DNA from: an uncultured bacterium
Lineage (GTDB): Bacteria; Patescibacteriota; Patescibacteriia; CAIQCM01
Assembly (NCBI GenBank): GCA_963708045.1
Contig: OY970181.1
Span: 323,740 to 387,739 of the forward strand
Direction: 5' to 3'
Length of the DNA: 64,000 bases
A program made the translations under genes and the position numbers. The first letter of the stretch is position 1, and every line of letters starts with the position of its first letter. The notes beneath the pieces are model-generated. The model saw only the letters and a list, made by a program, of their open reading frames with translations, did no database searches and had not been told where the DNA came from. This document shows, in pieces, positions 4,962 through 62,722 of the stretch.

Positions 4962-5039
4962 AAATTAGCCCATTGAGCTATTCTTTAAGCACAACTTAAT
5001 ATTGCCTAAACCGCGCCGATGGCGAGGCATGGCAGAAAT

Positions 5040-5083
5040 CCCATGACAGATACTGAACCCCGCGTTTAGCGTCCTGTCATGGG
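5040..5083. repeat. inverted repeat/hairpin cccatgacag...ctgtcatggg upstream of the recombinase gene
   Basis: Perfect 10-bp arms seen in sequence; candidate recombination site or promoter element. Confidence 0.4.
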
Positions 5084-5133
5084 TAATATTCCGAAAGGAA
5101 TATTTGGCCGCAAGGCCTAGCTAGCGCGGGGCT

Positions 5134-5919: not shown

Positions 5920-7573
5920 TTGGCGTTTGCCCAGCCAGAAAGAGCTTTTTTCTATAGTTAATTACAATATTTTTGCACCAGTATTTGATAGAAATTATTT
6001 TTCGGTTCCATTAACATCGGCTTCTTACTGGACTTCAACAATATGCGGTGTTGAGGGTGATAAAAAATATGCCTACCGCATTGACGGTTACCAAGGAATT
6101 GGGGGTTGTATAAATACTCTGTTTGATAGTTCATCCATTTATGTGCGTGTTGTTCGTGGGGGGATTAATCAATTGACGCCAATTTGTACGTCTTGGACCT
6201 ATGGTGATTGGGGAACATGTGTAAACAACCAACGCTCGAGATCAATTGTTTCCTCAATGCCGTCGAATTGTATTGGCGGAATGCCCGTTTTAACCCAAAG
6301 TTGTCAACCTTCGCCCGTGGTATGTTCTTCGTGGACATATTCCGATTGGGGTATGTGCACAGAAGGACGACAGGCGAGATCTATAGCCTCAGCAACACCA
6401 ACGAATTGTTCTGGCGGAAATTCTGTATTAAGCCGTGAATGTAGTTCAGTGCCTGCGTGCACGGAAAATAATTGGACATCATCTCTATCGCCATCGTCGT
6501 GTCCTGCCATTGGACAGCAGACAAAACAATGGTCAAAAATAGGTCAATGTGATGGCGGTGTTTTCCACCAAACGCAAGAAACGATTTCATGCAATTATCA
6601 GATATCATCCTGCACGGATTTTATATATAGTGACTGGGGTGATTGCAGTTCAAGCGGCGTTCAATCAAGATTGATTTTGAACAGTTCGCCATCGAATTGC
6701 ACTGGCGGAAGTTCTGTCACAAGCCGGAGCTGTAATTATGTTCCTGCGTGTTCATCAGATATTTGGTCCTGCGGGAATTGGGGAGCTTGCAGTGCTGGGA
6801 ACATTCAATCAAGAATCTGCATAAAGACTTTTGACTGTCCTAGTGTACAGACGCCATCACCTGCAACAGAACAGAGTTGCACAACACAGCAAAATGTAGA
6901 ATCACAACCTCAAGCAACTAACAGCATTGACACGAATGTTAATACCAGCAATGCCGCTAATTTAAAAAGTGTAATCGAAGAAGAAACGGGCTTGGTTTCA
7001 TCGGTCGATAGAAATTTATCAAAGAAATTGGCTGGAAATATTTTGCTTCAAGTCGAAAATCATGGCCAAGCATGGTACGTTAATCCAACCAACCTAAATA
7101 AATATTATCTGCCTGACGGCCAAGCCGCTTATCAGGCGTTAAGAATTTTTGGTCTGGGAATAACCAATGCCGACTTAAGCAAGATACCAGTAGGGGTTGA
7201 AAGCCGTTTTTCCGACGCCGATAGCGATAATGACGGCTTGGCAGATAAGCTCGAGGAGGGATTAGGAACCGATCCCAACAATCCTGATACGGATGGGGAT
7301 GGTGTTTTGGACGGCGATGAGTTATTGAGTCGAGGTAGCAATCCATTGGGTACTGGCAAAATATCGACCGACAGTAACCTTGTTAGTAAATTGAGTGGTA
7401 AAATACTATTGCAAGTCCAATCAAGGGGTGAGGCATGGTATATCAATCCAAAAGATTCAAAGAGATATTATTTAAAAGATGGGAATGCAGCTTATCAGAT
7501 TATGCGCTTTCTCAGCTTGGGTATTACCAACGATAATATTCGAAAAATATCGGTCGGAATGTTGTCTAATTAA
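5873..7573 (+). CDS. continuation of the frameshifted DUF1566 protein: second DUF1566 domain, four thrombospondin type 1-like Cys repeats, thrombospondin type 3-like Ca-binding Asp repeats, two C-terminal about 60-aa repeats
   Basis: NDWRLPSQKEL continues the domain interrupted at 5919; four W-x-x-W-G-x-C...C..GG...R.C repeats (e.g. CSSWTYSDWGMCTEGRQARSIASATPTNCSGG); DADSDNDGLAD...DPNNPDTDGDGVLDGDE; duplicated LAGNILLQVENHGQAWYVNP.../LSGKILLQVQSRGEAWYINP... Confidence 0.6.
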   Translation: MQFHIVKIYHCPDLNDWRLPSQKELFSIVNYNIFAPVFDRNYFSVPLTSASYWTSTICGVEGDKKYAYRIDGYQGIGGCINTLFDSSSIYVRVVRGGINQLTPICTSWTYGDWGTCVNNQRSRSIVSSMPSNCIGGMPVLTQSCQPSPVVCSSWTYSDWGMCTEGRQARSIASATPTNCSGGNSVLSRECSSVPACTENNWTSSLSPSSCPAIGQQTKQWSKIGQCDGGVFHQTQETISCNYQISSCTDFIYSDWGDCSSSGVQSRLILNSSPSNCTGGSSVTSRSCNYVPACSSDIWSCGNWGACSAGNIQSRICIKTFDCPSVQTPSPATEQSCTTQQNVESQPQATNSIDTNVNTSNAANLKSVIEEETGLVSSVDRNLSKKLAGNILLQVENHGQAWYVNPTNLNKYYLPDGQAAYQALRIFGLGITNADLSKIPVGVESRFSDADSDNDGLADKLEEGLGTDPNNPDTDGDGVLDGDELLSRGSNPLGTGKISTDSNLVSKLSGKILLQVQSRGEAWYINPKDSKRYYLKDGNAAYQIMRFLSLGITNDNIRKISVGMLSN

Positions 7574-12371: not shown

Positions 12372-12454
12372 GCCCAGGTGGCGGAACGGCATACGCACCA
12401 GCTTTAGGAGCTGGCACTCGCAAGAGTTTGAGGGTTCAAATCCCTCCCTGGGCA
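12372..12454 (+). tRNA. tRNA-Leu(TAG)
   Basis: GCCCAGGTGGCGGAACGGCATACGC ACCAGC-TTTAGGA-GCTGG (anticodon TAG), long variable arm, T-arm GGGTTCAAATCCC, acceptor closing CTGGGCA; 5' half nearly identical to the tRNA-Leu(TAA) at 494-576. Confidence 0.85.
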
Positions 12455-13117: not shown

Positions 13118-13168
13118 CCCTCACCCGGCCTTCGGCCGCCCTCCCCCATTTTTGGGGGAGGGTAAAAT
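13118..13168. repeat. GC-rich double-hairpin element ccctcacccggccttcggccgccctcccccatttttgggggagggt
   Basis: Near-identical copy lies inside a coding region at 60948-61000; related hairpins of the form ccctccc-loop-gggaggg recur across the window. Confidence 0.7.
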
Positions 13169-14320
13169 GAATCCCTAATTTCAGCCATATTTTGATTATT
13201 ACCTTGGCTCTTGACGGATATTTTTGAATAGAGTATTATATCCACATTATCCACAGAGCCCGACATACTATGAGCAGTAACTTAACTCCTAATATGAAAG
13301 CCAGCGGCTAGCCGGATATTTTGTGTCCCAATGCCCGCTGGTTTGCCAGCGGTTTTCTTTTTAGAAAAATCAGTTCGGAAACTTTTTAGAGGGTGGCCCC
13401 TTACAAAAGATTCCGAAAACCTACTTCCGCGGAGGGCGGAAAGAGCAAGTCCGAATTTAGGAACGTTGACAACCAAGCAAAGAGTAATAAATGTAAGTAC
13501 GAATTTTGGTTTCCAAAAGAAATCAAAATTTCAGTTTTGTTAACGTACAAAACTGGAGCATCTAAAAATAACGTCAACGAATTTTTGTGGTTCTCGTCGC
13601 AATGGAGCAATCCAAAGCGACTACCGTCCTAGTATCAGACTGGGACGGATCCAGAATTCTCTGGAAGACATTAAGGGCGTACGGTGGATGCCTCGGCATG
13701 GAATGCCTATGAAGGACGTAGCAGCCTGCGATAAGTCACGGCGAGGTGGCAAGCAACCTTTGACCCGTGAATCTCCGAATGAGGAAACTCAATCCGATGG
13801 AAGATCGGATTATCTTGTGCTGAATATATAGGTACAAGAAGGGAACTCGGCGAAGTGAAACATCTCAGTAGCCGAAGGAAAAGAAAGAAAGGTGCAATTT
13901 TTATATCGCCTTTCGCGATTCACATGTCTTCGGATGTGTGTTCCGCGATCTGCGGTAAAAAGTTGTGCTCATTCCCCTAGTAGCGGCGAGCGAACGGGGA
14001 AGAGCTTAAACTCCAAAGTGTTAAGCATGAAAACGGGTGATATGTCGAAAGATGTGTTATCGCGTATCGTGTGGCGGTTGTAGGGCCTCATATACTATGG
14101 AGTGTTCAGACGTAAGCGTTGTTCGCCTGCATCGAACAAGCAAGGGTTACAAACGATATCTTCCCAAGCAGAACGGCCTGGAACGGCCGGCCATAGACGG
14201 TGACAGCCCGGTACGCGAATGGGGTTATCCCTTTGCAGTTTATGTTCTAGAGTAACACGGGACTCGTGAAATCCTGTGTGAAGTCGGGAGGACTTTCTCC
14301 CAAAGCTAAATACATTCCAC

Positions 14321-14360
<40 letters not shown>

Positions 14361-14980
14361 CAGCCCGGAAGGGCGATGAAAAGTATCTGAAACCGTATGC
14401 TTACAAGGAGTGAGAGTGGATAGCAATATCCATGATCGCGTTCCTATTGAAGAATGAGCCAACGAGTTTGCTGTATGTGGCAAAGTTTAAGCCCGAGAGG
14501 GCGTAGACGTAGTGAAAGCGAGCGTGAAAGCGCGTTCTCACTTATCAACTTTTGCGGTTTACCGCAGAAGTTGTTGAGTGAGTGAGTCGCATACACAAGA
14601 CCCGAAACCGGGTGATCTAGCCATGGCCAGGATGAAGTTTTACGAAAGTAAAATGGAAGTCCGAACACATAAGCTGTGCAACACTTTGTGATGAGCTGTG
14701 GCTGGCGGTGAAATTCCAATCGAACTCGGTAATAGCTGGTTCTCCCCGAAATAGCTTGAGGGCTAGCGTCGGTTAATAACTAATTGGTGGTAGAGCACTG
14801 AATGGGGAACGGTGGAGTGATCCTACGTTTCCCAACCAACCTCCGAATGCCAGTTAGTGTTCCCGACAGTCAGCACGTGGGGGCTAAGCTCCACGGTGCG
14901 CAACGGAAACAGCCGTTGATCTCCAACTAAGGACCTTAAATCTATGCTAAGTGGAAAAGGATGTGGAACGACTCAAACAA

Positions 14981-15011
<31 letters not shown>

Positions 15012-15818
15012 TAAAGAAAGCGTAACAGCTCACTGGTCGAGTTATTCTGCGCCGAAAATATACCGGGGCTAAGCATAGTTCCGAAGTTGAGGGTTCTATA
15101 ATTAACTTTATAGAGCGGTAGGGGAGTGTTTGAAACGCATTGAAGGCGAAGACGTGAGTCCCGCTGGAGTGTTTCGAAGTACGAATGTTGGCATGAGTAG
15201 CAAAAATTGATGTGAGAACCATCAACGCCGTAAGAGGAAGGTTTCCTGGGCAACGCAAATCGGCTCAGGGTGAGGCGATCCTAAGACGAGGCCGAAAGGC
15301 GTAGTCGATGGAAAAGCAGGTTAATATTCCTGCCCCTCAATGGGTCACTACCCAGACTGACGCATCAAAAATACACGGGCGCTCTTTGGTTATGCGCGTG
15401 TCTTAATTGGGCAACTGATTAGGACGCAGTCTGAACCGAAAGGGGAAGACAATCCGTGAATGTATGGTGCCCAGAAAACGTCTGGAGACTATCCTATTGA
15501 GTCCGTACCGTAAACCGACACAGGTCCTCGGGCACAAGTGTGCCAAGGCGGACGAGAGAAACATCGTTCAGGAACTAGGCAAAAAAGTGGCCGTAACTTC
15601 GGGATAAGGCCTGCCCTATCGCAAGATAGGGTCGCAGCGAGCGTCTATGAACCGACTGTTTATCAAAAACACAGGTCCCTGCTAAGTCGCAAGACGATGT
15701 ATAGGGGCTGATGCCTGGCCAGTGTCAGAACGTTAAGGGGAGATGTTGACTCCGCAAGGAGAAGGCATTGAACCGAAGCGCTGATGAACGCCGGCGGTAA
15801 CTATAACCGTCCTAAGGT

Positions 15819-16086
15819 GGACAACACTGCCTTAGTGAGGTAACAGACCTCCTTCGAACTTTGACTAGCCATTGTCAAAGAGGTAGAAGAAAATTTGGCT
15901 ATTTCGGTGAACCTCCTTGTTTAAAAACAAGGACAATACCGAGGCAACCTGCAATGTGCAGAGAGTCCGTAGAGACTACACGCCAAAGTTTAACAATTGG
16001 TTAAATAAGATATAGTCCGAACTGCTTAGTAATAAGCAGAGCGTGATTGAACACCACGCCATTACAAAGTGTAATGTAACAACAAG
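15819..16086 (+). ncRNA. group I intron in 23S rRNA (insertion after CCTAAGGT, E. coli position about 1917)
   Basis: Exon sequence CCTAAGGT | intron | AGCGTAATCCCTTGTCGGGTGAGTTCCGACC matches the uninterrupted 23S; 5' exon ends in T and intron ends in G; conserved group I core elements R (cagagagtccgtagagactacacgcc) and S (aagatatagtccgaac) are present; 268 nt, no ORF. Confidence 0.75.
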
Positions 16087-16369
16087 AGCGTAATCCCTTG
16101 TCGGGTGAGTTCCGACCCGCACGAATGGCATAACGAGTTCATAACTGTCTTGACGATGTACTCGGCGAAATTGCAAGTGGCGTGAAGATGCGCTGTACTC
16201 GCAGCTGGACGAAAAGACCCCGTGAAGCTTTACTACTCCTTGCCATTGGATCATGTTTACTTATGTTCAGCGTAGGTGGGAGCCGCAAGGCGCCAATGAG
16301 ACACCACCCTTATGTTGATATGATTCTTACTGCAAACCGTGAATCCGGTTAGCGGAACAGTGGCTGGAA

Positions 16370-16400
<31 letters not shown>

Positions 16401-16621
16401 CAGTAACGGAGGCGTTTACAAAGGTAGGCTTGGCTCGGATGGAAATCGAGCTCAAAGTGCAAACGCAGAAGCCTGCTTGACTGCGAGGGTGATGGCCCGA
16501 GCAGAGACGAAAGTCGAAGTTAGTGATCCGACGGTCCCTCAGAGGAGGGCCGAAGCTCAACAGACAAAAGCTACTCCGGGGATAACAGGCTGATCTTGCC
16601 CAAGAGTCCATATCGACGGCA

Positions 16622-16681
<60 letters not shown>

Positions 16682-16738
16682 TGGCTGTTCGCCAATTAAA
16701 GCGGTACGTGAGCTGGGTTCAGAACGTCGTGAGACAGT

Positions 16739-17114
16739 GAGAATACCCGCGCTGTCTAAAAATCAGATCCAAGTCGCAATTCACAAGATGCGAAAGGATT
16801 CCGGTGTTGTCGCAAGATAACACTGGAGCTAAATGCTGGAAAATCTGGTCCGATCTTCTTTGGAGAGAAGATCAAAGAACTCGCACTAGTCGCGCAAGCG
16901 ACTGACAACGTGACGAGCGCAGACAATCAGCAGGAAAGGTTCTTCCATTACACGTAGAACAATCAACAATGGAAAGAAAATCCTCAGAGACTACACGCCT
17001 GATAGCTAGAAACCCCTAGTGAAAGATATAGTCCGAACTCTATGGCGACATAGAGAGTGCATCAGAAATGATGCGCCGGTTCAAAATTTATTTTTTGAAT
17101 TCGCAACATAATTG
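16739..17114 (+). ncRNA. group I intron in 23S rRNA (insertion after GAGACAGT, E. coli position about 2593, the I-CreI-type site)
   Basis: Exon GTCGTGAGACAGT | intron | TCGGTCTCCTATCC; intron ends in G; R (cagagactacacgcc) and S (aagatatagtccgaac) elements shared with the first intron; 376 nt, no ORF. Confidence 0.75.
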
Positions 17115-17550
17115 TCGGTCTCCTATCCACTGCGAGCGTTGAAACTTGAAGGGATGCTTCCCTAGTACGAGAGGACCGGGAAGCACGAACCTCCCGTGTA
17201 CGTGTTGTCCTACCAAGGGCATGGCACGGTAGCGGAGTTCGGAGGCGATAAGCGCTGAAAGCATCTAAGCACGAAGCGCCCCCTAAGATTAGGTTTCGTT
17301 ATAGACTCCTCGGAGACGACGAGGTTGATAGGCAGTAGGTGTAAGGCCCGCAAGGGTTTGAGCCGAGCTGTACTAATCGGTCGAGTTCTCCAGGGAACTC
17401 TGGTAAAAAATCAGAGAACCACAAAAACGCGCTGAAGTTATTTCAGTTGCCGTACTTTACATTTAGTGAATATCGCGTCTTTTTTGATACGGTATTTGCG
17501 AACCAACGAGCGTAGCAGCGTCTTCGTTCTGTTATAAAATAAGTTCAGAG

Positions 17551-17670
17551 TCTTGGTGACCCAACCGCACTGGTCACACCCGTTCCCATCTCGAACACGG
17601 CAGTTAAGCAGTGCAGGGCTGATGATACTTGGGGCCAACCCGTCCCTGGGAAAGTAGGCCGTTGCCAAGA
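17551..17670 (+). rRNA. rrf: 5S rRNA
   Basis: TTGGTGACC...GGTCACACCCGTTCCCATCTCGAACACGGCAGTTAAGC...GGGAAAGTAGG...GCCAAGA; flanking processing stem aagttcagagtc/gaccctgaactt. Confidence 0.85.
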
Positions 17671-17784
17671 CCCTGAACTTATTAAAAAAATAACAGAAAA
17701 GAGACGCTGAAACGCTCTGCAAAATACCACCTGAAAGGGTGTTTTTTTGTTTCTTAAAACCCCCTTTGGTAAAAAGTCGCGAAA

Positions 17785-17950
17785 AATCTTAGCCCTCCCT
17801 TTGGTAAAAGGGAGGGTGGGGAGAGTTCTGTTTTATTACGTTAAAAATATTTACGGCGAAACGAACTCCCCCTACCCCCTCTTTTGCAAAGAGTGGGCTA
17901 AGACTGGTTACAGATTTCATGTCTACCAATGTGCAAAGAGAGGGCGAGGA
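17785..17950. repeat. composite hairpin repeat element, A-B unit, empty copy (A: cttagccctccctttggtaaaagggagggtggggagagttctgttttattacgtta; B: cgaacgaactccccctaccccctc...gactggtta...tgtgcaaagag)
   Basis: Copies at 17992-18058 (A), 18470-18658 (B then A) and, inverted, 53745-53890 (A-B). Confidence 0.7.
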
Positions 17951-17991
17951 TAAAATTCTCAAATACAATCTTTTTTACAAAGATAGTGACA

Positions 17992-18658
17992 AAGCCGTGA
18001 AAAATCTTAGCCCTCCCTTTGGTAAAAGGGAGGGTAGGGAGAGTTCTGTAATTAACGTTACTTTTTATTAGAATTATTTAAAATCCAATTATGTACTTCG
18101 CTTAAAACTCCGTCTAGATTTTTCATTATATCGTTGTTCCAAAATCTTAAAACCGTAATATTATTCAGTTTTAAATAATTCGTTCTTTCTTGATCATAAT
18201 CAACGCGCTCGGCGTGTCCTCCGCCATCCGCTTCAATAGCAAGAGAGAGCGCCGGACAATAAAAATCAAGAATATATTTTCCGACGCTATATTGCCGAAA
18301 AAATTTATAACCAAAAAATCGTTTTGCTCTTAGCTGTTGCCATAGTTCCTTTTCTGCCACCGTTTGGCTTTCGCGCAATGACTGTCTTAATGACTTTAGG
18401 GCAAGATTATTTTTAAACATAACTACAAATTAATTTTATCAAAAAGTAGGGCTGAAATATACTTAACAGCGAACGAACTCCCCCTACCCCCTCCCCGATG
18501 GCCATCGGGGAGGGGGCAAAGACTGGTTGCATCTTACAAGACTATCATTGTGCAAAGAGTAGCTAATGCGAAACAAAAAATCTTAGCCCTCCCTTTGGTA
18601 AAAGGGAGGGTAGGGAGAGTTCTGTTTTATTACGTTAATTTAAGCCATTATTTAGCGT
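17992..18658. mobile_element. A-B repeat element copy carrying a DUF559 ORF as an internal insert (candidate small selfish element, of which the other copies look like MITE derivatives)
   Basis: A unit ends ...gagagttctgtaattaacgtta at 18058; the DUF559 gene occupies 18058-18420; the B unit resumes at cgaacgaactccccctacc (about 18470). In the empty copy the same two points are only about 20 nt apart. Confidence 0.5.
18058..18420 (-). CDS. DUF559 domain protein (Vsr-like restriction-endonuclease fold)
   Basis: 120 aa; characteristic DUF559 C-terminal region (CPALSLAIEADGGGHAE...ERTNYLKLNNITVLRFWNNDIMKNLDGVLSEV). Confidence 0.7.
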   Translation of the reverse strand: MFKNNLALKSLRQSLRESQTVAEKELWQQLRAKRFFGYKFFRQYSVGKYILDFYCPALSLAIEADGGGHAERVDYDQERTNYLKLNNITVLRFWNNDIMKNLDGVLSEVHNWILNNSNKK

Positions 18659-20321: not shown

Positions 20322-20466
20322 CGACCACCACGCCCAACCCCACGGCGAATACAAAATAGTGGGGCGCATTCTCAAGCAGTTGATTATCTCTCTCTTCAAC
20401 CGCTTGATCGATGCGAGTTAAATCACATCATTGGAAAAGACGAGTTTTGACGCAAGTCACCATTCG

Positions 20467-20553
20467 TCTTCCCAATAAAGTTCGTGAATACCTTTTTTCC
20501 CTCCCCCAAGAATGGGGGAGGGCGAGGGCTGTCACGCACTTCATTGGGAAGAA
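20467..20553 (+). promoter_or_regulatory. conserved upstream element copy 1 (cttcccaataaagttcgtgaata...ccctcccccaagaatgggggaggg...cacttcattgggaag)
   Basis: Outer inverted repeat ttcccaat/attgggaa enclosing a CCCTCCCCC/GGGGGAGGG hairpin; copy 2 at 22047-22151; a degenerate third copy at about 23695. Confidence 0.55.
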
Positions 20554-20601
20554 ACAGAAAGTTCGTTGACTTGAAAACGTTAGAAAGAAAGGTAAAGGAA
20601 G

Positions 20602-21984
20602 ATGAAGAACGCAATCGTTTCGTTGTTTGCTTTGTTCGTGTTGGTCGGATGCGAAACCAACAACTACTTCAATCTGCAACTGCCCGCAGCGTCAGCACCC
20701 AAAACAGAAGTGTCTGACGCTGGAGTATCTACTGCACCCGACGCGACTAGCGTCAGTGTTCTAGACACAATGGCACCGAACATCACGCCCGATGCCATCG
20801 TTGACACAGCAAGACCTGAGGTTGGCATCGATGTGTTGGTCGTCTCGGCCGATGCTGTTTCTGCTGAAACGGAAATCAGATCGCAAGATGCACTTCCAAC
20901 GGATACGACACCCGTCGTTTCCACTGATACGCAGCTTGCCGATACCGCACCAATGGCAATCTTCAAGATCGAATCGGTTTCCGTAAAGCGAGAAGATTCA
21001 TTTGGTGTTCTTGCAGAGGACGTTCGCAGTTTTGCAATCAAGTTTTCCAGTCCCGCCAAGAACATCTGGTTAACCATAAACGAGAAAACAACGGGAGCCA
21101 TCTTCCGTTGGGATCCAATCATGTGGGACGCCTCGTCAGTGCTTTCGGCCAATGTCGCTCCGGGTAACTGGACAGAGAAGCTGAAGACAAGCACTACCTA
21201 CATTTGGAGTGTAAAGGCTGATGCGGCAACGCCAGTTGCTGGCCCGCAGTCTGCGGTCGTGGTCGGCGAGTTTGTAACCGCCATTTGCTTTGCCGGACAA
21301 ACACGGTCTTGCTACGGAGGTTTGCCGCAGACAAGAAACATTGGTCAATGTCGTGATGGAACCAATGCCTGCGTCGTAACAAGCCAGGGAACGTATTGGA
21401 ACAACAATTGCATTGGCGAAACAACTCCGTATCCATTCGGTGACAGGTGCGGTGATGGTATTGACAATGACTGTGATGGTCTGATTGATAACTCAATTCA
21501 GATGGACGTTCCGTCGGGTCAAGATTCTATCTGGGCCAGAGCGTTGGTTAACGGGGAAGTCCTTCGGTTCAGCGTCAATTCCAAGAATGCATCGGCGACC
21601 CACTTCAGCTGGTTGAACGTTCAGGTTACAAGAAATGGACTCAATGTCGGTTACTACCGCCTTTGGGTAATGAATGCCAGTGGATCGTGGAATGACATCT
21701 CTTCTCAGGTAGACTTCTTTGATGCTTCAAGCGGGGGGTACAAGATAGGGATGTTTGATCTGGGTAGCAATCTTTTCACTGGGCCGAATGATTGGTTCAA
21801 TCTCGGCATTCATTGGAAAGATCTCGTTGGCCCGACTCTGCGCGGAGGAGAAGTAATCAACTATATGTTGGTTGCTAATGTAAATCCCGAGTTTGCAAAC
21901 AAGGGAGGTACAGTACGTCATTACGCCCCACACTCCGATAGTTCGTGTAGCACCGAGGGGGGCAAGACCATCTCGGTTGATTAG
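20602..21984 (+). CDS. secreted lipoprotein with Cys-rich Asp-rich putative metal-binding module
   Basis: Lipobox LFVLVGC; Cys cluster ...CRDGTNACV...CGDGIDNDCDGLIDN resembling the C-x-D-x-D-N-D-C-D-G motif of secreted bacterial proteins; remainder unknown. Confidence 0.5.
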   Translation: MKNAIVSLFALFVLVGCETNNYFNLQLPAASAPKTEVSDAGVSTAPDATSVSVLDTMAPNITPDAIVDTARPEVGIDVLVVSADAVSAETEIRSQDALPTDTTPVVSTDTQLADTAPMAIFKIESVSVKREDSFGVLAEDVRSFAIKFSSPAKNIWLTINEKTTGAIFRWDPIMWDASSVLSANVAPGNWTEKLKTSTTYIWSVKADAATPVAGPQSAVVVGEFVTAICFAGQTRSCYGGLPQTRNIGQCRDGTNACVVTSQGTYWNNNCIGETTPYPFGDRCGDGIDNDCDGLIDNSIQMDVPSGQDSIWARALVNGEVLRFSVNSKNASATHFSWLNVQVTRNGLNVGYYRLWVMNASGSWNDISSQVDFFDASSGGYKIGMFDLGSNLFTGPNDWFNLGIHWKDLVGPTLRGGEVINYMLVANVNPEFANKGGTVRHYAPHSDSSCSTEGGKTISVD

Positions 21985-22008
21985 TACTTTCGCAAAACAA
22001 AATAACAG

Positions 22009-22047
22009 GCGAGCGCTCTGATGGATCAAACCATCTCGCGCTCGCCT
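22009..22047 (+). terminator. terminator hairpin ggcgagcgc...gcgctcgcc after the lipoprotein gene
   Basis: 9-bp GC stem seen directly. Confidence 0.5.
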
Positions 22048-22151
22048 TCCCAATAAAGTTCATGAAACACCTTTTTTCCCTCCCCCAAGAATGGGGGAGG
22101 GTGCCCGAAAGGGTGGGAGAGGGTTGTCATGTACTTCATTGGGAAGAAAAG
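22047..22151 (+). promoter_or_regulatory. conserved upstream element copy 2
   Basis: About 85% identical to copy 1 with an extra internal hairpin (cccgaaagggtggg); ends 8 nt before the RBS of the next gene. Confidence 0.55.
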
Positions 22152-22159
22152 GAGAGTTC

Positions 22160-22403
22160 TATGAAAATTAAAAAACAAAAAACAAAGTGTCCGCGCAAAG
22201 TTTCGGATCCTGACTATTCGTGGAAACGCGATACAACGCTTTCGTTAAAACAGCGAATCAGCGAAGCGCGCCACGATGTTCATGATGCGATGGTCGCGAG
22301 CAATGAAGTTTTGCCCGACTCACTTGTATCCGCGTGGGCAACATTGAATCTTTTGCTCGGTCCGCTTTCACCAAGAAAGCGGCGTCAAGTCACAATTCAA
22401 TAA
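22160..22403 (+). CDS. hypothetical small basic protein
   Basis: MKIKKQKTKCPRK...; AAGGAGAG RBS; the longer 22062 start would translate the repeat element. Confidence 0.4.
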
Positions 22404-22435
22404 ATTCAGAACACCAAAAAAAGAAAGGCATTACG

Positions 22436-22834
22436 ATGAATATCCTCGGATTGATTCTTGTACTGGCTCTGCTTGCTGGGCTTGTTGACGTTTTCTTCAC
22501 CATTCAAAGTAACACGATCAAGGTGATGATTAACGGAACCGCGCCATTTGCAATCGTCTCGTTTTTGCGCGCGAAAAGTTTTAGCACCTATTTTTTCCGC
22601 TTACTCATGTCAGTGGAAAGCGATAGTCACCGACTGGAACTTGTAGGTCACAATCTGGCAAGTATTGTGATGAATAGATTGCCAACAGGGGATGGCCTGG
22701 TTGATACTCGTTGGCCGCTTGCCAAGATCACGATTACTGCGTCAAATCCCACACGTCTGCACGAGGCATGGGAGGCTGTTCAAGGAAATAGACGAATCTG
22801 GTCGCAGAACTGTCCGCTTTTCGTGGGGTTCTAG
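22436..22834 (+). CDS. hypothetical membrane protein
   Basis: MNILGLILVLALLAGLVDVFFT TM helix; ORF-track start at 22334 is probably an upstream extension. Confidence 0.4.
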   Translation: MNILGLILVLALLAGLVDVFFTIQSNTIKVMINGTAPFAIVSFLRAKSFSTYFFRLLMSVESDSHRLELVGHNLASIVMNRLPTGDGLVDTRWPLAKITITASNPTRLHEAWEAVQGNRRIWSQNCPLFVGF

Positions 22835-22864
22835 AAGTGGTCGCAAACTGAAGGAGGAAGACAA

Positions 22865-23554
22865 ATGAGTAACAAAAATCACGGATCAAATGTTTTTGCA
22901 AAGGTACTTGTCGTAATCGCGCTTGCCGTGGTGGGTGGTGCACTGAACATTATTGGTCTCAATTTTGAATTGATACAACATCAAGGATTAGAAGCGCTAA
23001 TTGAATACAAGACCATCATTTCGTCGCTCGGTGTACTTGTTAGTGTTGGCACACTCATCTACGCCGTATTCTGGATGGTCGTCTCGTATCGCAAGTGTGG
23101 TCGCGGGAATCGTCGGCTTGAGGAAGAGGCCAAAGCCGTTACTCACGACGTTGCCAAGGCTTTGGTTGATTCAGCTACCTTCGCGCCACTTCAGCGATTG
23201 GATGGAATAGCGGGTGCGCTTGATAGTTCGGTTAATGCACTGAGCCACATGGCTGAGGTGACCAGCTTGCTCGGGAACACGCTCTCGGCAGTGATGGTTT
23301 GTTGGGCAAAGGTCATCGCGTTTATGGGTGAAGGTTGCTTCTACCAAGCGGCGCTCGCGATCGCTGGCGATGAACGCGTGGCTTCACTGACTTCTCACCA
23401 AAATCTGATCCGAGCGATATACCAAGTCGCCTTGGCAGATAAGCGAGAGATGAGTGGTGGTGAAGTATATCTTATTAAAAACAGATTCCCATTCGTGCTC
23501 GGAGAATTACCACCAATGCCAATGCCGTCCGAATCGTCTGAAAAAAGGGCGTGA
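22865..23554 (+). CDS. hypothetical membrane protein
   Basis: 229 aa, two N-terminal TM helices, strong GGAGGAAG RBS. Confidence 0.45.
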   Translation: MSNKNHGSNVFAKVLVVIALAVVGGALNIIGLNFELIQHQGLEALIEYKTIISSLGVLVSVGTLIYAVFWMVVSYRKCGRGNRRLEEEAKAVTHDVAKALVDSATFAPLQRLDGIAGALDSSVNALSHMAEVTSLLGNTLSAVMVCWAKVIAFMGEGCFYQAALAIAGDERVASLTSHQNLIRAIYQVALADKREMSGGEVYLIKNRFPFVLGELPPMPMPSESSEKRA

Positions 23555-23834
23555 AGACGCAAGGTGGCAAGGTGGTCGCAAACAGGCAGAAGGGTTCGCC
23601 CTTCTGCCTGTTTTTCATATCGCGTCGCCCGTGGGGTTGACAAAATCTTCAATTTAGTGTAAGTTCTAATGTTCTTTAAAATCGCCATAAATGGCATATT
23701 TTTCCAATGAAGTTTATGAAACACCTGCCCCCTTATCGCTACCGCGATAAGCGGGTATAAGCGAGAAACCAGCGTGGTTTCGTAAATTTTTAGGGAAAGT
23801 ATCCCTATAGTCACCACAACCAAGGGGGAAAGTC

Positions 23835-26016: not shown

Positions 26017-27280
26017 ATGGTGAATATGGAAACAATTATTGACCTGCACATCCACTCAAAATATTCGCGCGCCTGCTCTAAACTTTTGGAGCCGGCCAAT
26101 TTGGCGCTTTGGGCCGACAAAAAAGGCATTAATGTTTTAGGAACCGGCGACTTTACACATCCGTCGTGGCTAAAAGAACTTAAAGAAAATTTGACCGAAG
26201 ACCAGTCTGGACTGTTTAAATTAAAAAACGGAAATGCCAAAGCGCGTTTTATGCTTACGACCGAGATTTCGTGCATTTATAAACGCGGCGGCAAAACGCG
26301 GCGCGTGCATAATTGCATTTTTGCACCGTCGTTTGCGGCTGTTGATTTAATTATTGCCGAACTTACAAAACGTAATTGCAATTTAAAGTCGGACGGACGT
26401 CCGATTGTTGGTTTGGACTCAGAAGAGCTCTTAAAGATTGTTCTTGAAGCCTCGCCAAATTGTATGCTCGTGCCGGCGCACGCCTGGACGCCGTGGTTTG
26501 CGATTTTTGGTTCTATGTCCGGTTTTGATTCGCTTGAAGAATGTTTTGGTGAAAATAAAAAACATATTTATGCCATTGAAACTGGTCTTTCGTCTGACCC
26601 GCTAATGAATTGGCGGCTTTCAAAACTGGACGACGTCCTGCTTGTCTCAAATTCCGACGCTCACTCGCTTGGCAACCTTGGCCGCGAGGCAAATGTTTTT
26701 GATATCGCGCCGGAAAAATTATCTTATGCGGAAATAATTAGAATTCTTCGCGAAAAAGATCGCAAGAAATTTTTGTACACGATAGAATTTTATCCCGAAG
26801 AGGGGATGTATCATTTTGATGGCCATCGCGTGTGCAAAAAAAGAATGCATCCTGAAGAAACGGCAAAAAATAACGGCCTTTGTCCGGTTTGCAAAAAACC
26901 GGTGACGGTCGGCGTGTATTCGCGTGTCGCCAAGCTCGCCGATCGCGTTCGAGGGGACGCGGCCGCCCGGAATGGTGCCGTTTAAAAGCATTGTGCCGCT
27001 AGACGAAATTATCGCCGAAGCGCTAGACCGCGGCGCGGCGACCAAAGGCGTGCAAACAATTTACGAACAAATGGTTGGCAGGATGCCAGAATTTAAAATT
27101 TTACTTCACGCTCCCTATGACGAGATTATGTCGTTTGCACCGCCTGATGTTGTTAGCGGAATAAAACGCGTGCGCGAAGGAAAGTTGCAAATAGAACCCG
27201 GCTATGACGGCGAATACGGAACCGTAAAAATTTTTTCCGATTCCGAAAGAAAGAAAATGGAACAAGCGAAGTTGGTGTAA
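26017..27280 (+). pseudogene. EndoQ-like PHP-domain endonuclease (TIGR00375-like), interrupted by a +1 frameshift near 26940-26985
   Basis: N-terminal ORF (26017-26985): DLHIHSKYS PHP motif, LVPAHAWTPW, CPVCKK...GVYSRVAKLADR zinc finger. C-terminal ORF (26924-27280, other frame): ...FEGTRPPGMVPFKSIVPLDEII...PGYDGEYGTVKIF. The two overlap by 62 nt. Confidence 0.6.
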
Positions 27281-27452
27281 TAACTAATATCTAATGTCTA
27301 ATACCTAATCCGTTGGCGTCATCCCGAGGAGTGAAGCGACGAGGGAGCTCAACGTCTCTAAGCAAGCTCCGTGATTCCTCGTCAAGACAAAGCGACTAGA
27401 CGGACTCAAAATGACGGCGGATTAGACATTAGACATTAGATATTAGGTATTA
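27281..27452. repeat. low-complexity palindromic intergenic element with ctaat-repeat arms (aatatctaatgtctaatacctaatccg ... cggattagacattagacattagatattaggtatt)
   Basis: Family members at 39785-39895, 54541-54678 (3' arm missing), 37836-37912 (tagagat-type), 61543-61600 and 62668-62732 (aactttt-type). Confidence 0.65.
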
Positions 27453-39776: not shown

Positions 39777-39931
39777 ATATTTGAATATCTAATGTCTAAT
39801 ATCTAATTTCTAATCCGACCAGCCGGAAACCCCGCGTCTCGGGGTGACGGCAACGGATTAGATATTAGGTATTAGTTATTAGATATTAAGTAATTATTAT
39901 ATCACAAAACCCCGACGCTGCGGGGTTTTGG

Positions 39932-53744: not shown

Positions 53745-53890
53745 ATAATTCTGTGTCTGGAAAAATCTTTGCCCCCTCCCCGATGGCCATCGGGGAGGGG
53801 GTAGGGGGAGTTCGTTCCGTCCTAACGTAATAAAACAGAACCCTCCCGGCCTTCGGCCACCCTCCCTTTTACCAAAGGGAGGGGCTAGAT
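53745..53890. repeat. inverted copy of the A-B composite hairpin repeat element
   Basis: ccccctccccgatggccatcggggaggggg...gttcgttcc...aataaaacagaaccctcc...ccctcccttttaccaaagggaggg is the reverse complement of the 17785-17950 unit. Confidence 0.7.
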
Positions 53891-53995
53891 TTAGATTTTT
53901 AAAAAATTTGTGATCGTCTCCCATGCACAGGATGTTGTAAAATACCTAAAATGGGTCGTTGATGAACGGCAACAAACGCGTTAAGATGCCATAAT

Positions 53996-54538: not shown

Positions 54539-54681
54539 TATCCGAATACCTAATATCTAATTTCTAATACCTAATCCGTTGGCGTCATCCCGAAGAGCCG
54601 AAGCGATGAGGGAACTCAAAGTCTCTTAATATGCTCCGCGGTTCCTCGCCGAGCTGAGCTCGTCGGAATGACGGCTTAAAT

Positions 54682-60393: not shown

Positions 60394-61533
60394 CTAACGA
60401 GTGGAAAAAGCCCGTTTATACCCAGTTTGGGTAAGCTGGGCGGTTTTTGACCAAGAAAAGGTTTGCGCGCGGGCTTTTGCTGCCGATAAAATTGTCGTTT
60501 TATAGTCCGTTTCGGTCATTATTTTATGGTAGGCGTTTACAAAACCGCTAACGTCAGACGGATTTATGAGCGGAATGGTATTTCCCAACATTTCTCGCGA
60601 AGTATCAATTGCCGAAGCAATAACTGGAGTCTCGGCAAGGGCGGCCTCAAGCGGCGGCAAGCCAAAACCTTCAACTTGCGAAGTAAAAATAAGCGCGTTC
60701 GCGTTTTTGTATAAATTTCCAAGCTCGGCGTCGGAAACTAAGCCGACAAAATTAACGCGATTAAGATTATCGCCAATTATTTCTGCGGCTTGTTTTTTTA
60801 GTTGTTCGGCAAAAGCGGGGTCAGTGCCGGCGATGACAGTTGTTAGCTTTTGGTCGCTAGTCATTAGTTCTTTGGCAACCCTAAAGAATGTTTCCATATT
60901 CTTGTGCGGATAACCGGAACCAACGGACAAAATGTAGGGAGTGAGCGGATACCCCTCACCCGGCCTTCGGCCACCCTCCCCCATTTTTGGGGGAGGGTTA
61001 TAAGGAAATTGATCAACACCGTTTGGGGTGACGAATATTTTCTCTGGGGAGACTTTAATGTTCCGCAAGATGGAGTTTTTGGCGCTCTCGGAAACAGTGA
61101 ACACAATTTTTGCCCGCTTGGCATTTTCCGAAACAACAAAACGGTAGAAAAAATATTTAAACCAATATGCAATCGGGTTAAGGGTTGTAGAAGCAAGCGC
61201 TGGATGCTCCCAAAGAATCATATCGTGAATGGTAATGGCGAGTGGGGTTTTTAACCAAAGCGGCGCGTTCCAATGCGGTACGTGGATGAGGTCAAGTTTT
61301 TCTGCGTCAAAAATTTTTCCAAGTTTTGTTTGTTCGGCAAGCGTATACCAACGAATGTCGGTAATAATGGTTTTCATTTTTGGGGGCACCAAAACCGCGG
61401 CTTCTTTTCGCGTAAAGACCGTATATTCATTTTCGTTGTCTGATTCGGCAAGATGGGCGAGCAGTCGTTCCGCGTAGCGTCCGATACCGCGACTATTTGG
61501 CCCCATCAGGCGGGCGTCAATCCCTATTTTCAT
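60394..61533 (-). CDS. GT4-family glycosyltransferase containing an in-frame GC-rich hairpin repeat
   Basis: EGFGLPPLEAALAETPVIAS motif; residues FPYNPPPKMGEGGRRPGEGYPLTPYI are encoded by the 60948-61000 repeat. Confidence 0.75.
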   Translation of the reverse strand: MKIGIDARLMGPNSRGIGRYAERLLAHLAESDNENEYTVFTRKEAAVLVPPKMKTIITDIRWYTLAEQTKLGKIFDAEKLDLIHVPHWNAPLWLKTPLAITIHDMILWEHPALASTTLNPIAYWFKYFFYRFVVSENAKRAKIVFTVSESAKNSILRNIKVSPEKIFVTPNGVDQFPYNPPPKMGEGGRRPGEGYPLTPYILSVGSGYPHKNMETFFRVAKELMTSDQKLTTVIAGTDPAFAEQLKKQAAEIIGDNLNRVNFVGLVSDAELGNLYKNANALIFTSQVEGFGLPPLEAALAETPVIASAIDTSREMLGNTIPLINPSDVSGFVNAYHKIMTETDYKTTILSAAKARAQTFSWSKTAQLTQTGYKRAFSTR

Positions 61534-61591
61534 AACTTTTAACTTTTAACTTTTAACTTTTGATTGCTTCCTAAAAGTTAACAGTTAACAG

Positions 61592-62665
61592 TTAAAAGTT
61601 TTTTATTGTCTTCACCGTCTCTGCGGCGCATTTTTCCCATGAAAAATTTTTGACGCGCTCGTAACCACGGCTTATTAAAGTTTGTCGTAGATTGTTATCG
61701 CTCAAAACTTGATCAAGTGCTTCGGCAAAAGCGCCAGTGTCTCTTGGGTTTAAAAGAATTCCAGCGTCGTGAATAGTTTCTGGGAGAGCGCCGACCGACG
61801 AAGCAACGACGGGTACGCCAGCAGTCATTGCTTCTAGCGCGGGAAAGCCAAATCCTTCGTAAAATGAGGGAAAAAATAAGGCTCGCGCGTTTCGTAATAG
61901 TGCGCCTTTTTCTTCTTGAGTGACTTGACCGAGAAAGTGGATTCTGTCCGGGTGGTTCATGGTATATGGTACATGGTTCATTTGTCGTGGGCCGGCAAGG
62001 ACAAAATGGATGTCTTTGTTTTTTTGCGCGAGCAGGTTAAAGGCGGCTAAGGCCGTTTGAATATTTTTTCGCGGTTCAATAACGCCGAGGAAGAGGATGT
62101 AGGGGAAAGAGGGCGACATTCCGTGGGGATTGTGCAACGAAGATACAACCGGCGGCACGCCTGGCGGGATTACGGCGATTTTTTCCGTAGGGACTTTTAG
62201 TAGCTCGGTTAATTCGCGCGCCGTGTGACTAGAAAGGGTGATGATTTTGTCGGCGCGGGCAATTAATTTTTTTGTGTTAATTGCGCGGTGCCAAAGTCGC
62301 TCCTTTGCCGAATACCACGATGGATTAACTAAAAAAGAAAGATCGTGAACCGTTAAAATAACTCGTGCCGTTTTTTTAAACGACCAAAAATTAAGGTTGG
62401 GCAGCCAGACAGTTGGTGTTTCTAAATATTCATCAATTTTTGGATAATTTAAAAATGCGAGCGCGGCGTTTGCTAATTTACTGGGGAGAAATAATTTTTT
62501 GGTCGCGATTTTAAAATTTGGCGCGTGAGCGCGGAGCGAAACAAGGCCGCAAAATTGATTGGCGTCGTTTTGTTTTGTTAACTCAGAAATAAGCGGCGCG
62601 GCATACGCCGAAACGCCGCGGCTGGTTTTGTCTTGGAGCGAACGGAGGTCTATCCCTATACGCAT
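61592..62665 (-). CDS. GT4-family glycosyltransferase containing an in-frame ggttcatgg-type repeat
   Basis: EGFGFPALEAMTAGVPVVAS motif; QMNHVPYTMNHPDR encoded by 61953-61980. Confidence 0.75.
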   Translation of the reverse strand: MRIGIDLRSLQDKTSRGVSAYAAPLISELTKQNDANQFCGLVSLRAHAPNFKIATKKLFLPSKLANAALAFLNYPKIDEYLETPTVWLPNLNFWSFKKTARVILTVHDLSFLVNPSWYSAKERLWHRAINTKKLIARADKIITLSSHTARELTELLKVPTEKIAVIPPGVPPVVSSLHNPHGMSPSFPYILFLGVIEPRKNIQTALAAFNLLAQKNKDIHFVLAGPRQMNHVPYTMNHPDRIHFLGQVTQEEKGALLRNARALFFPSFYEGFGFPALEAMTAGVPVVASSVGALPETIHDAGILLNPRDTGAFAEALDQVLSDNNLRQTLISRGYERVKNFSWEKCAAETVKTIKNF

Positions 62666-62722
62666 AACTTTTAACTTTTAACTTTTAACTTTTGTTGCTT
62701 CCTAAAAGTTAACAGCTAACAG

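Follow-up and report, generated by a model that had tools for sequence, protein, structure and literature searches.

A DUF559 nuclease gene between facing triplex-motif repeats in a Patescibacteriota genome

In a 64,000-nucleotide stretch of DNA from an uncultured Patescibacteriota bacterium (contig OY970181.1; the whole stretch is hereafter the window), a predicted small nuclease gene of the DUF559 family lies between two facing hairpin repeat units, A and B. Judging from their layout, both units belong to the BoxC/PIT/triplex-motif (TM) class of bacterial repeats. The repeat cluster starts directly past an rRNA operon (23S at 13661–17395, 5S at 17552–17670, terminator-like hairpin at 17728–17741) and runs in the order half-A remnant, A1–13 nt–B1, A2–409-nt insert–B2 and A3 alone, with an inverted A-B pair 35 kb off. 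Both components, the gene family and the repeat class, are already known; the link between them is the new point. The features, with coordinates and strand, are as follows (ORF, open reading frame).

17761–17777, plus strand: half-A remnant CCCCCTTTGGTAAAAAG, degenerate, at about these positions, directly past the 5S terminator; read by eye
17782–17844, plus strand: A1, TM repeat; hairpin CCCTCCCTTT/AAAGGGAGGG at 17793–17816, mirror G-arm GGGGAGAGTTC at 17818–17828, tail TGTTTTATTACGTTA; called by the strict finder at 17793–17825
17845–17857, no strand: 13-nt spacer of the empty doublet copy 1, from the alignment
17858–17940, plus strand: B1, oppositely oriented TM; C-arm GAACTCCCCC at 17863–17872, slightly degenerate hairpin at 17875–17897
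18000–18060, plus strand: A2, left half of the filled doublet; hairpin at 18011–18034, arm at 18037–18046, terminal ACGTTA
18058–18420, minus strand: predicted DUF559 (Vsr/EDxHD-type PD-(D/E)XK) nuclease gene, 120 aa plus stop
18421–18469, minus strand: 5' leader of the gene within the insert, with an extended −10-like TGATAAAAT (complement of 18433–18441) 12 nt before the ATG
18470–18559, plus strand: B2, right half of the filled doublet; C-arm at 18475–18484, perfect 15-bp hairpin at 18487–18516, 3' extension
18576–18638, plus strand: A3, A unit without a B partner; from repeat searches, alignment and the strict TM finder
53766–53892, minus strand: copy 4, empty inverted A-B doublet between divergent ORFs; B at 53766–53818, A at 53823–53892

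The A-unit 30-mer CTTAGCCCTCCCTTTGGTAAAAGGGAGGGT occurs on the plus strand at 17788, 18006 and 18582 without a mismatch and, inverted, on the minus strand at 53859–53888 with three mismatches; 100 shuffles of the sequence gave no match. There are four full A units (17782–17844, 18000–18060 and 18576–18638 on the plus strand, 53823–53892 on the minus strand) and three B units, whose 24-nt core CGAACGAACTCCCCCTACCCCCTC lies at 17858 and 18470 (plus) and at 53795–53818 (minus) and was likewise absent from 100 shuffles. A previous sequence-only reading had described a DUF559 ORF within a repeat whose other copies are empty. The ORF indeed sits exactly at the A|B junction, and the repeats and the ORF lie where that reading placed them, although it omitted the solo A unit at 18576, which falls inside the span it gave. 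Aligning the copies, as it had proposed, defined the insertion boundaries: the A-to-B gap is 13 nt (17845–17857) in copy 1 and ~3 nt in the 53.8-kb copy, and in the filled copy A and B are parted exactly at their junction by an insert of 409 nt (18061–18469), not ~415 nt, with the ORF now assigned to the minus strand. The empty A1-B1 and the filled A2-B2 are tandem paralogues with a common B 3' extension, which B1 has in common with B2 only. Furthermore, the B unit at 18471–18522 is complementary at 52 of 52 positions to that at 53766–53817; the two are thus identical on opposite strands, 35 kb apart, and this identity suggests recent copying or conversion.

Each A unit consists of a 10-bp hairpin (CCCTCCCTTT/AAAGGGAGGG), 1–2 bases and a G-rich arm (GGGAGAGTTC), and in each B unit a C-rich arm (GAACTCCCCC) is joined by the dinucleotide TA to a hairpin (CCCCCTCCCC.../...GGGGAGGGGG). 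Within a unit, the arm nearly mirrors the hairpin's purine half; between units, it is Watson–Crick complementary to the partner's arm. Except at one base, reverse-complementing the 3' part of A (GGGTAGGGAGAGTTC) gives the 5' part of B (GAACTCCCCCTACCC). Read in gene orientation, all copies run hairpin, G-arm, spacer or ORF, C-arm, hairpin, and the 53.8-kb A unit holds an additional GGCCTTCGGCC hairpin (GGCCGAAGGCC) between its main hairpin and its arm. Because the 3' part of A complements the 5' part of B, the empty doublets fold as single-stranded DNA into a three-way junction closed by TCTTAGCCC/GGGCTAAGA pairing, the closing GGGCTAAGA of B1 pairing with the 5' end of A1. The folds reach −32.2 kcal/mol for copy 1 (z = −7.3) and −38.8 kcal/mol for the 53.8-kb copy (z = −5.2), and were computed with ViennaRNA, which models Watson–Crick folds only.

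Are A and B the two parts of one composite element, as the sequence-only reading had it? Their anatomy points the other way: A and B are one TM motif on opposite strands (A plus, B minus), each an independent copy of the known BoxC/PIT/TM class, and the A-B pair an inverted TM doublet. The units have the TM class II layout of a pyrimidine stem, a loop, the complementary purine stem, a short second loop and a mirror purine arm, and, as is typical of the class, they are intergenic and multicopy and occur on both strands and in inverted pairs. A strict TM finder detected A1, A2, A3, B2 and the 53.8-kb B, with no hits in 20 shuffles of the window; B1, with its degenerate stem, and the 53.8-kb A, with its inserted small hairpin, failed the strict rule. 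Membership in the TMECO family was considered and rejected. Its consensus CCCTCNCCC-N3–6-GGGNGAGGG-N3-GGGNGAGGG is not matched by the stems of the window units (CCCTCNCCC..GGGNGAGGG..GGGNGAGGG versus CCCTCCCTTT..AAAGGGAGGG..GGGAGAG and CCCCCTCCCC..GGGGAGGGGG..GGGGGAG), which therefore form another sequence family of the same class. Rfam gave nothing above gathering thresholds over the window repeat cluster, and at E ≤ 10 the cluster and a repeat array in the homologous locus L041 gave generic hairpin hits far under threshold; the units are thus not a curated RNA family.

To our knowledge, the BoxC/PIT/TM repeats, known since 1992, have no known function, origin or means of spread. The class has been described in several studies (Bergler 1992; Hoyne & Maher 2000, 2002; Holder et al. 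2015, PMC4666352). The last of these counted 3610 TMECO copies in 262 proteobacterial genomes, with TMECO abundant in E. coli, Shigella and Enterobacter and absent in Salmonella, and found many G/C-rich TMs in cyanobacteria and Neisseria. It also noted inverted TM pairs, showed triplex formation in vitro and linked TM loci to genomic instability, TMs impeding polymerases in vitro; transposase or integrase remnants were never found near TMs, nor was any mobility activity nearby (PMC4666352).

The gene in the insert encodes a protein that matches Pfam PF04480 (DUF559) over residues 9–111 (E = 1.1e-34, 119.1 bits against a cut-off of 20.6); its significant Pfam families are DUF559 and MTES_1575 REase only. 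DUF559 is a very large domain family, and we know of no role for its small stand-alone proteins, including E. coli YcjD. By tblastn, this is the single DUF559 gene in the 64-kb window. Its TAA stop (18058–18060) is the TTA of the A-unit end ACGTTA, and the empty copies have ACGTTA too. A consensus scan upstream of the gene found no full sigma-70 site; the −10-like TGATAAAAT, seen by eye only, suggests that the promoter may lie within the leader. An alignment of 45 homologs shows no variation at E63, H69, R92, F93 and W94 and hardly any at D52 and D65; the window protein has all of these residues, and its conserved core (ILDF..., AIExDGxxH, RFWN) is intact.

The AlphaFold2 (AF2) model of the protein (predicted local distance difference test score, 90.4) matched the DUF559 structure 3HRL in Foldseek (E = 1.3e-7, TM-score 0.90; sequence match E = 4e-32) and the catalytic domain of I-Bth0305I (3R3P; Foldseek E = 5e-4, TM-score 0.77; hmmsearch E = 4e-4). 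Further structural matches were the PvuRts1I/AbaSI nuclease domains and, distantly, 1VSR (E = 0.18). The Vsr-like endonuclease fold named in the sequence-only reading is borne out by these matches, and the product is a predicted DUF559 nuclease with a Vsr/I-Bth0305I-like fold. On the NCBIfam YcjD equivalog model, the protein scored 96 bits against a cut-off of 218, so the gene is a paralogous member of this group rather than an ortholog of YcjD. Some of its homologs carry the annotation very-short-patch-repair endonuclease, and many have C-terminal tails, such as TPPNLPL, that are translated flanking hairpin. The three closest homologs (71–74% identity) have differing gene neighbourhoods and similar TM-type units on their flanks: the window copy follows a 5S rRNA gene, that in locus L001 stands by AAA_14/DUF4143 and that in L002 by aminoacyl-tRNA synthetase genes.

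Does this flanking extend to the family at large? With the 45-homolog alignment, 80 metagenome loci were fetched. With redundancy removed, they gave 61 small DUF559 genes, and 57 of these have a GGGGGAGTT-like arm ≤100 nt upstream; the arm ends exactly at the ATG in 26, and in 17 the complementary arm begins inside the stop codon (TAA|CTCCCC). The strict finder placed a TM(+) ≤100 nt upstream of 53 of 75 DUF559 genes versus 0 of 98 control ORFs (p = 4e-27), and a TM(−) ≤100 nt downstream of 22 of 68 versus 0 of 109 (p = 6e-11), the controls being ORFs of ≥150 aa from the same loci. The link is also specific. A long ORF opened by GGGGGAGTT-ATG is almost always a DUF559 gene, and loci selected by their TMs alone have all kinds of genes beside the repeat, of which just the DUF559 gene starts straight after the arm (2 nt), other convincing genes beginning ≥9 nt from it.

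TM flanks were found in N. gonorrhoeae, Azospirillum, Deinococcus, Sphingomonas, Synechocystis, plasmid pAQ6 of Picosynechococcus PCC 7002 and IMG/VR contigs, and the association extends over at least seven phyla. In N. gonorrhoeae, the source of 3HRL, a TM-like hairpin lies ~90 nt upstream of the gene. In L002, the B-core 19-mer is identical to that of the window and the protein is 71% identical; the flanking DNA is thus more conserved across phyla than the protein. Among the viral-contig homologs, L121, L123 and L134, which are some of the more divergent ones (33–43% identity), have no TM flanks and L119, L125–L130 and L133 have them; the B core was not found on viral contigs. The upstream unit of G+C-rich IMG/VR loci matches the 53.8-kb A unit in one trait: a small hairpin, of GGCC type, separates its arm from the main hairpin. 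From these loci, we take a TM(+)–ORF–TM(−) layout to be how genes of this DUF559 clade normally occur, whatever the phylum. The gene–repeat association itself is solid; its meaning we infer. The DUF559–TM link appears neither in PMC4666352 nor in any paper found by a full-text search, with subscription-only literature outside that search.

The repeat itself extends to other genomes. Among species-representative genomes, 30 stretches match the B-core 19-mer GAACTCCCCCTACCCCCTC exactly; they belong to Planctomycetota, Caldisericota, Omnitrophota, Chlorobi, Saccharibacteria, Doudnabacteria, Proteobacteria and others. Chance would account for 0.2–16 hits, according to G+C content. Of the 30, about 25 run on into the same hairpin, and nearly all are intergenic. 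A composite doublet with the architecture of the 53.8-kb copy stands on at least four contigs of one Caldisericales genome: a hairpin, a small GC hairpin and GGAGGGTTC, a short spacer, then GAACTCCCCC-TA and a hairpin. The sequence-only reading had held that A and B units occurring independently in many arrangements would make their adjacency coincidental. Units do occur alone, as illustrated by A3 and by the 28 of 30 B-core hits that have no DUF559 gene in the fetched stretch (≤8 kb); on the other hand, A-B adjacency recurs. Because of the Caldisericales doublets, and because DUF559 genes of more than 60 unrelated loci stand at the same place between facing arms, the adjacency is a recurrent configuration rather than chance. 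Both orders were seen, TM(+)..TM(−) and TM(−)..TM(+). In two loci of candidate division FCPU426 (L011, L028), other interspersed hairpin repeats (CATTGCGAGG...CGAAGCAATC) stand beside the TMs; this type is a different widespread repeat family.

Some empty copies look like former gene carriers. The 101-nt units arrayed in L041 are broken up by the ORF in one place and by just 8–10 nt (GGGGAGTTATGATGTAGTAACTCC, twice) in others, and in L040 a stub encodes MNYYNLK*, which is like the N-terminus of the family. These copies look like ORF-loss derivatives that have retained start and stop codons. Of the two options in the sequence-only reading, that the short copies derive from a DUF559-carrying element in the manner of a miniature inverted-repeat transposable element (MITE) or that the gene inserted into a pre-existing repeat, the stubs therefore favour the first. 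No general rule follows, as just 3 of 12 strict doublets keep the ATG/TAA; a deletion-derivative origin thus holds for some lineages only.

E. coli offers a view of the same partners at the level of strains. In K-12, the DUF559 gene ycjD lies between sapF and fabI, which we take to be the gene also called envM. BoxC was first reported in the envM sequencing paper, as that paper is cited in PMC4666352 (Bergler 1992, reference 46). The stop of ycjD falls within CCCTCTCCCTGAAAGAGCGAGGGGG, and TM repeats are found both there and further downstream. At 6195–6420 (minus) of the K-12 locus (NC_000913, L114) stand a ~70-nt duplicate of the ycjD 3' end (ETVLENI...), a degenerate TM and a full TMECO; the duplicate suggests a past rearrangement or conversion at the repeat. 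The gene is present in 3377 of 5426 complete E. coli genomes and absent from 38%. Across a spread sample of 59 genomes, ycjD carriers had 15–32 further TM-like places (median 21), about three times the number in genomes without the gene (2–20, median 6.5; Mann–Whitney p = 4e-9), a comparison that phylogroup confounds. The named close YcjD homologs are from Escherichia, Shigella, Enterobacter, Klebsiella, Kluyvera and relatives, with no Salmonella in the top 120, which agrees with the range of TMECO (PMC4666352). A clean empty site in E. coli was looked for and not found, the ycjD-less locus being a resistance-nodulation-division (RND) efflux island and not an empty doublet. In the ycjD-less strains examined (L115, TCM3e1; L116, the B2-type strain APEC E19019; L117, O157 AR-0429), TetR and this island lie upstream of fabI, and K-12 homology starts just past the K-12 TMECO position.

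How might gene and repeat belong together? Our leading reading, held tentatively and with real room for error, is that they form one nuclease–repeat partnership with the layout of RAYT–REPIN systems and with a Vsr-like PD-(D/E)XK nuclease. The nuclease would recognise the arm/arm' pseudo-palindrome or the extruded hairpin junction and nick or cut there. Recombinational repair among the many short, near-identical TMs would then copy and homogenise them, and now and then units and the ORF would be transferred, created or lost in the process; the non-autonomous progeny or partners would be the solo TMs and the doublets that have no ORF. The anatomy, the association across phyla with its specificity, and the co-distribution in enterobacteria are shown here; the action of the nuclease on TMs and the spread or maintenance of TMs by that action, cleavage and mobility alike, we infer. 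More doubtful, though possible, is a wider form of this reading, in which small DUF559 nucleases are the missing protein partner of BoxC/PIT/TM repeats across bacteria and generate, spread or homogenise them by cutting doublets or hairpins and provoking repair; in a variant, they would be a motif-specific T:G 'proof-reader' that keeps the C/G runs intact.

Several points weigh against such a partnership. A PD-(D/E)XK enzyme cannot rejoin DNA alone, so any mobility would rely on host repair. A DUF559 gene lies near just 2 of the 30 B-core hits (in fetched stretches of ≤8 kb), the other 28 being without one. Across the ORF, the arms show no locus-by-locus covariation beyond the family consensus (9 loci, p = 0.09); variation is too low, and in arrays the arms pair inside single units too, not just across the ORF. 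By eye, no target-site duplication is visible at any window copy. No orthologous filled/empty pair was found, only the paralogous empties at 17782–17940 and 53766–53892, no close relative of the source genome being available: a neighbouring gene encodes a 460-aa protein whose best homolog shares just 56% identity. In E. coli, TMs persist without ycjD (14 places in O157:H7, 2–9 in B2-type strains), and since an RND-efflux island occupies the locus in every ycjD-less strain examined, the difference may go back to only a few independent events. Finally, the Caulobacter DUF559 protein VsrA has been proposed as a conventional T:G repair enzyme (PMC12907096).

Could the gene instead be a free-standing homing endonuclease, as the sequence-only reading had suggested? 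The TMs would then be pre-existing and independent, the nuclease would cut the empty arm/arm' junction and be copied in by double-strand-break repair, and it would have no part in TM spread. The fold is related to that of the EDxHD homing endonuclease I-Bth0305I, the gene stands at the exact centre of a pseudo-palindromic doublet with the half-sites remaining as inverted repeats that abut the ORF, and B2 is identical to the B of the empty doublet 35 kb off. The distribution is likewise that of a homing gene, sporadic and with close homologs in unrelated contexts. However, one DUF559 gene stands against several empty units in the window, as one ycjD does against ~20 TMs (15–32) in E. coli, where efficient homing into a multicopy target should yield several genes; a RAYT/REPIN-like relation therefore fits these numbers better. 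Start and stop codons are built into the arms in many lineages, the ATG...TAA stubs in some empties suggest ORF loss rather than virgin targets, and homing leaves unexplained why TM number tracks ycjD presence. We consider such a classical homing role unlikely.

Alternatively, the protein could be a host housekeeping nuclease, either a VSP-like T:G mismatch nickase or a structure-specific remover of hairpins or triplexes, with the TMs serving only its own gene, as operators, terminators or mRNA-stabilising hairpins, and nothing being mobile. The proposal of VsrA as a Vsr-like repair enzyme speaks for it. A dedicated processing nuclease is also plausible because TMs impede polymerases in vitro and are linked to instability (PMC4666352), and hairpins that abut start and stop codons could throttle the expression of a toxic nuclease. 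On the other hand, PIT/TM elements were without promoter or terminator activity in earlier work, to the extent that PMC4666352 cites it, and no cytosine methyltransferase gene was seen by eye among the adjoining window ORFs, which were read without a Pfam scan, nor do the annotations of the homolog loci examined include one. Over a third of E. coli genomes do without the gene, which is thus dispensable and patchily distributed, and its close homologs stand in unrelated neighbourhoods. The conservation of flanking DNA above that of the protein in L002 also speaks against a housekeeping role, and regulation alone leaves the ORF-less doublets elsewhere unexplained. On balance, this explanation seems improbable.

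An integron-like arrangement, with TAAC-...-GTTA as a site of attC type and the DUF559 ORF as a cassette that has no promoter and lies between two such sites, would account for the tight packing of the ORF between structured imperfect palindromes, for AAC and GTT at the arm ends, for the inverted repeat running into the ORF ends in L087, L101 and L107 (GTTATGAAT...ATTCATAAC) and for the array in L041. We rejected it as very improbable: the arm-end sequences do not fit RYYYAAC/GTTRRRY core sites, the annotated neighbours in the loci examined include no integrase, units enclose a DUF559 ORF every time where cassettes would vary, and most units stand alone in ordinary intergenic DNA. That TMs merely accumulate in permissive, repeat-rich DNA past the rRNA operon, with a small ORF among them by chance, is scarcely credible even though several other hairpin repeat families occur in the window and the locus lies directly past the 5S rRNA terminator, given the strict-finder counts upstream of DUF559 genes and control ORFs (53/75 versus 0/98), the exact arm–ATG and stop–arm junctions in dozens of diverged loci and the recurrence across phyla. 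A MITE or transposon proper was also considered: the doublet ends pair (TCTTAGCCC/GGGCTAAGA), but there is no flanking direct duplication and no transposase among the window ORFs or the annotated neighbours of the homolog loci.

To return to a nuclease–repeat partnership, the physical link across phyla turns the question of the TMs and that of DUF559 into one testable hypothesis, for which E. coli ycjD is a tractable model. If the wider form of the reading is true, in either variant, it would be a second, mechanistically independent symbiosis of the RAYT–REPIN type, with another catalytic fold, and it would explain both the conservation of TMs across phyla and their link to genomic instability. 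If the nuclease acts on TMs, it would be a second domesticated or selfish nuclease living with its own hairpin-repeat population, and it might be practically useful as a structure- or sequence-specific nuclease.

The window has other features of its own. The 23S rRNA gene is 3735 nt long versus a 2925-nt model and holds two group I introns (15809–16039 and 16729–17055), apparently without large ORFs; no 16S gene lies upstream of it within the window. Taken with the 1.19-Mb contig and the best homologs, these traits suggest a CPR/Patescibacteria genome. A LOOT RNA, a structured RNA (RF03000), is present at 5003–5118 on the plus strand (77 bits versus a gathering threshold of 46.4). Nested G/C hairpin repeats occur at 13118–13163 and 60953–60998 and at 20464–20570, 22042–22164 and 23701–23726, built from the modules GGCCTTCGGCC and CCCTCCCCC..GGGGGAGGG; the set at 20464–23726 recurs every ~1.6 kb ahead of apparent tandem paralogous genes, enclosed by a longer inverted repeat (CTTCCCAATAAAGTTC.../...CTTCATTGGGAAGA). 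These repeats have no clear mirror arm, and the strict finder made no TM call in them. A 7-nt periodic CTAATAN family ending in CCGTTGGCGTCATCCCGAGGAG occurs in both orientations (27279–27331, 27418–27452, 39784–39888, 54545–54597), with one copy 650 nt from the 53.8-kb empty doublet, and a TTTTAAC/GTTAACA heptamer palindrome has two copies 1.13 kb apart (61511–61600 and 62643–62731). Two near-identical inverted tRNA genes (494–576, minus; 12372–12454, plus) lie 11.8 kb apart with arms 96–100% complementary, and they could mediate inversion of the intervening segment.

Among known systems, the BoxC/PIT/TM repeats come closest to the window units, with the same succession of pyrimidine stem, loop, purine stem, short loop and mirror purine arm, and with intergenic, multicopy, very similar copies on either strand, sometimes in inverted pairs, in many phyla. 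The TMECO copy beside E. coli ycjD/fabI provides a gene–repeat adjacency like that in the window, although published work on the class reports no associated mobility or nuclease gene. On the protein side, the stand-alone DUF559 proteins NGO0050 of N. gonorrhoeae (3HRL; 43% identical in the Foldseek alignment to the AF2 model) and E. coli YcjD (PRK09767; 46–47% identical by tblastn) are of similar length. E. coli Vsr and Caulobacter VsrA belong to the same superfamily and clan as the window protein; however, 1VSR is only a distant structural match, and consistent embedding in TM repeats is no trait of Vsr. I-Bth0305I (PDB 3R3P) has a related catalytic fold and is likewise encoded by a small, selfish-looking nuclease gene at a defined sequence; it differs in being the product of a group I intron within a phage recA gene and in having a separate DNA-binding domain (PMC3239194), whereas the window gene is free-standing in a non-coding repeat and its product is 18% identical.

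The RAYT–REPIN systems share the layout. In both, a single nuclease gene lies between inverted copies of a short hairpin repeat that far outnumbers the gene, long hairpins form when inverted doublets fold, target-site duplications are lacking, and the A-B doublet resembles a REPIN because its facing arms pair; the lower repeat number in E. coli genomes without the gene is a further likeness. RAYTs are HUH/Y1 single-strand transposases, able to cut and rejoin DNA, whereas DUF559 is a Vsr-like PD-(D/E)XK hydrolase that does no rejoining, and the window repeats have a third, mirror arm. Membership among the RAYTs was rejected: the significant Pfam families of the window protein are the two named above and not HUH/Y1 (IS200/IS605-like) transposases. 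Consequently, the window locus is no RAYT–REPIN member but is analogous to these systems in layout.

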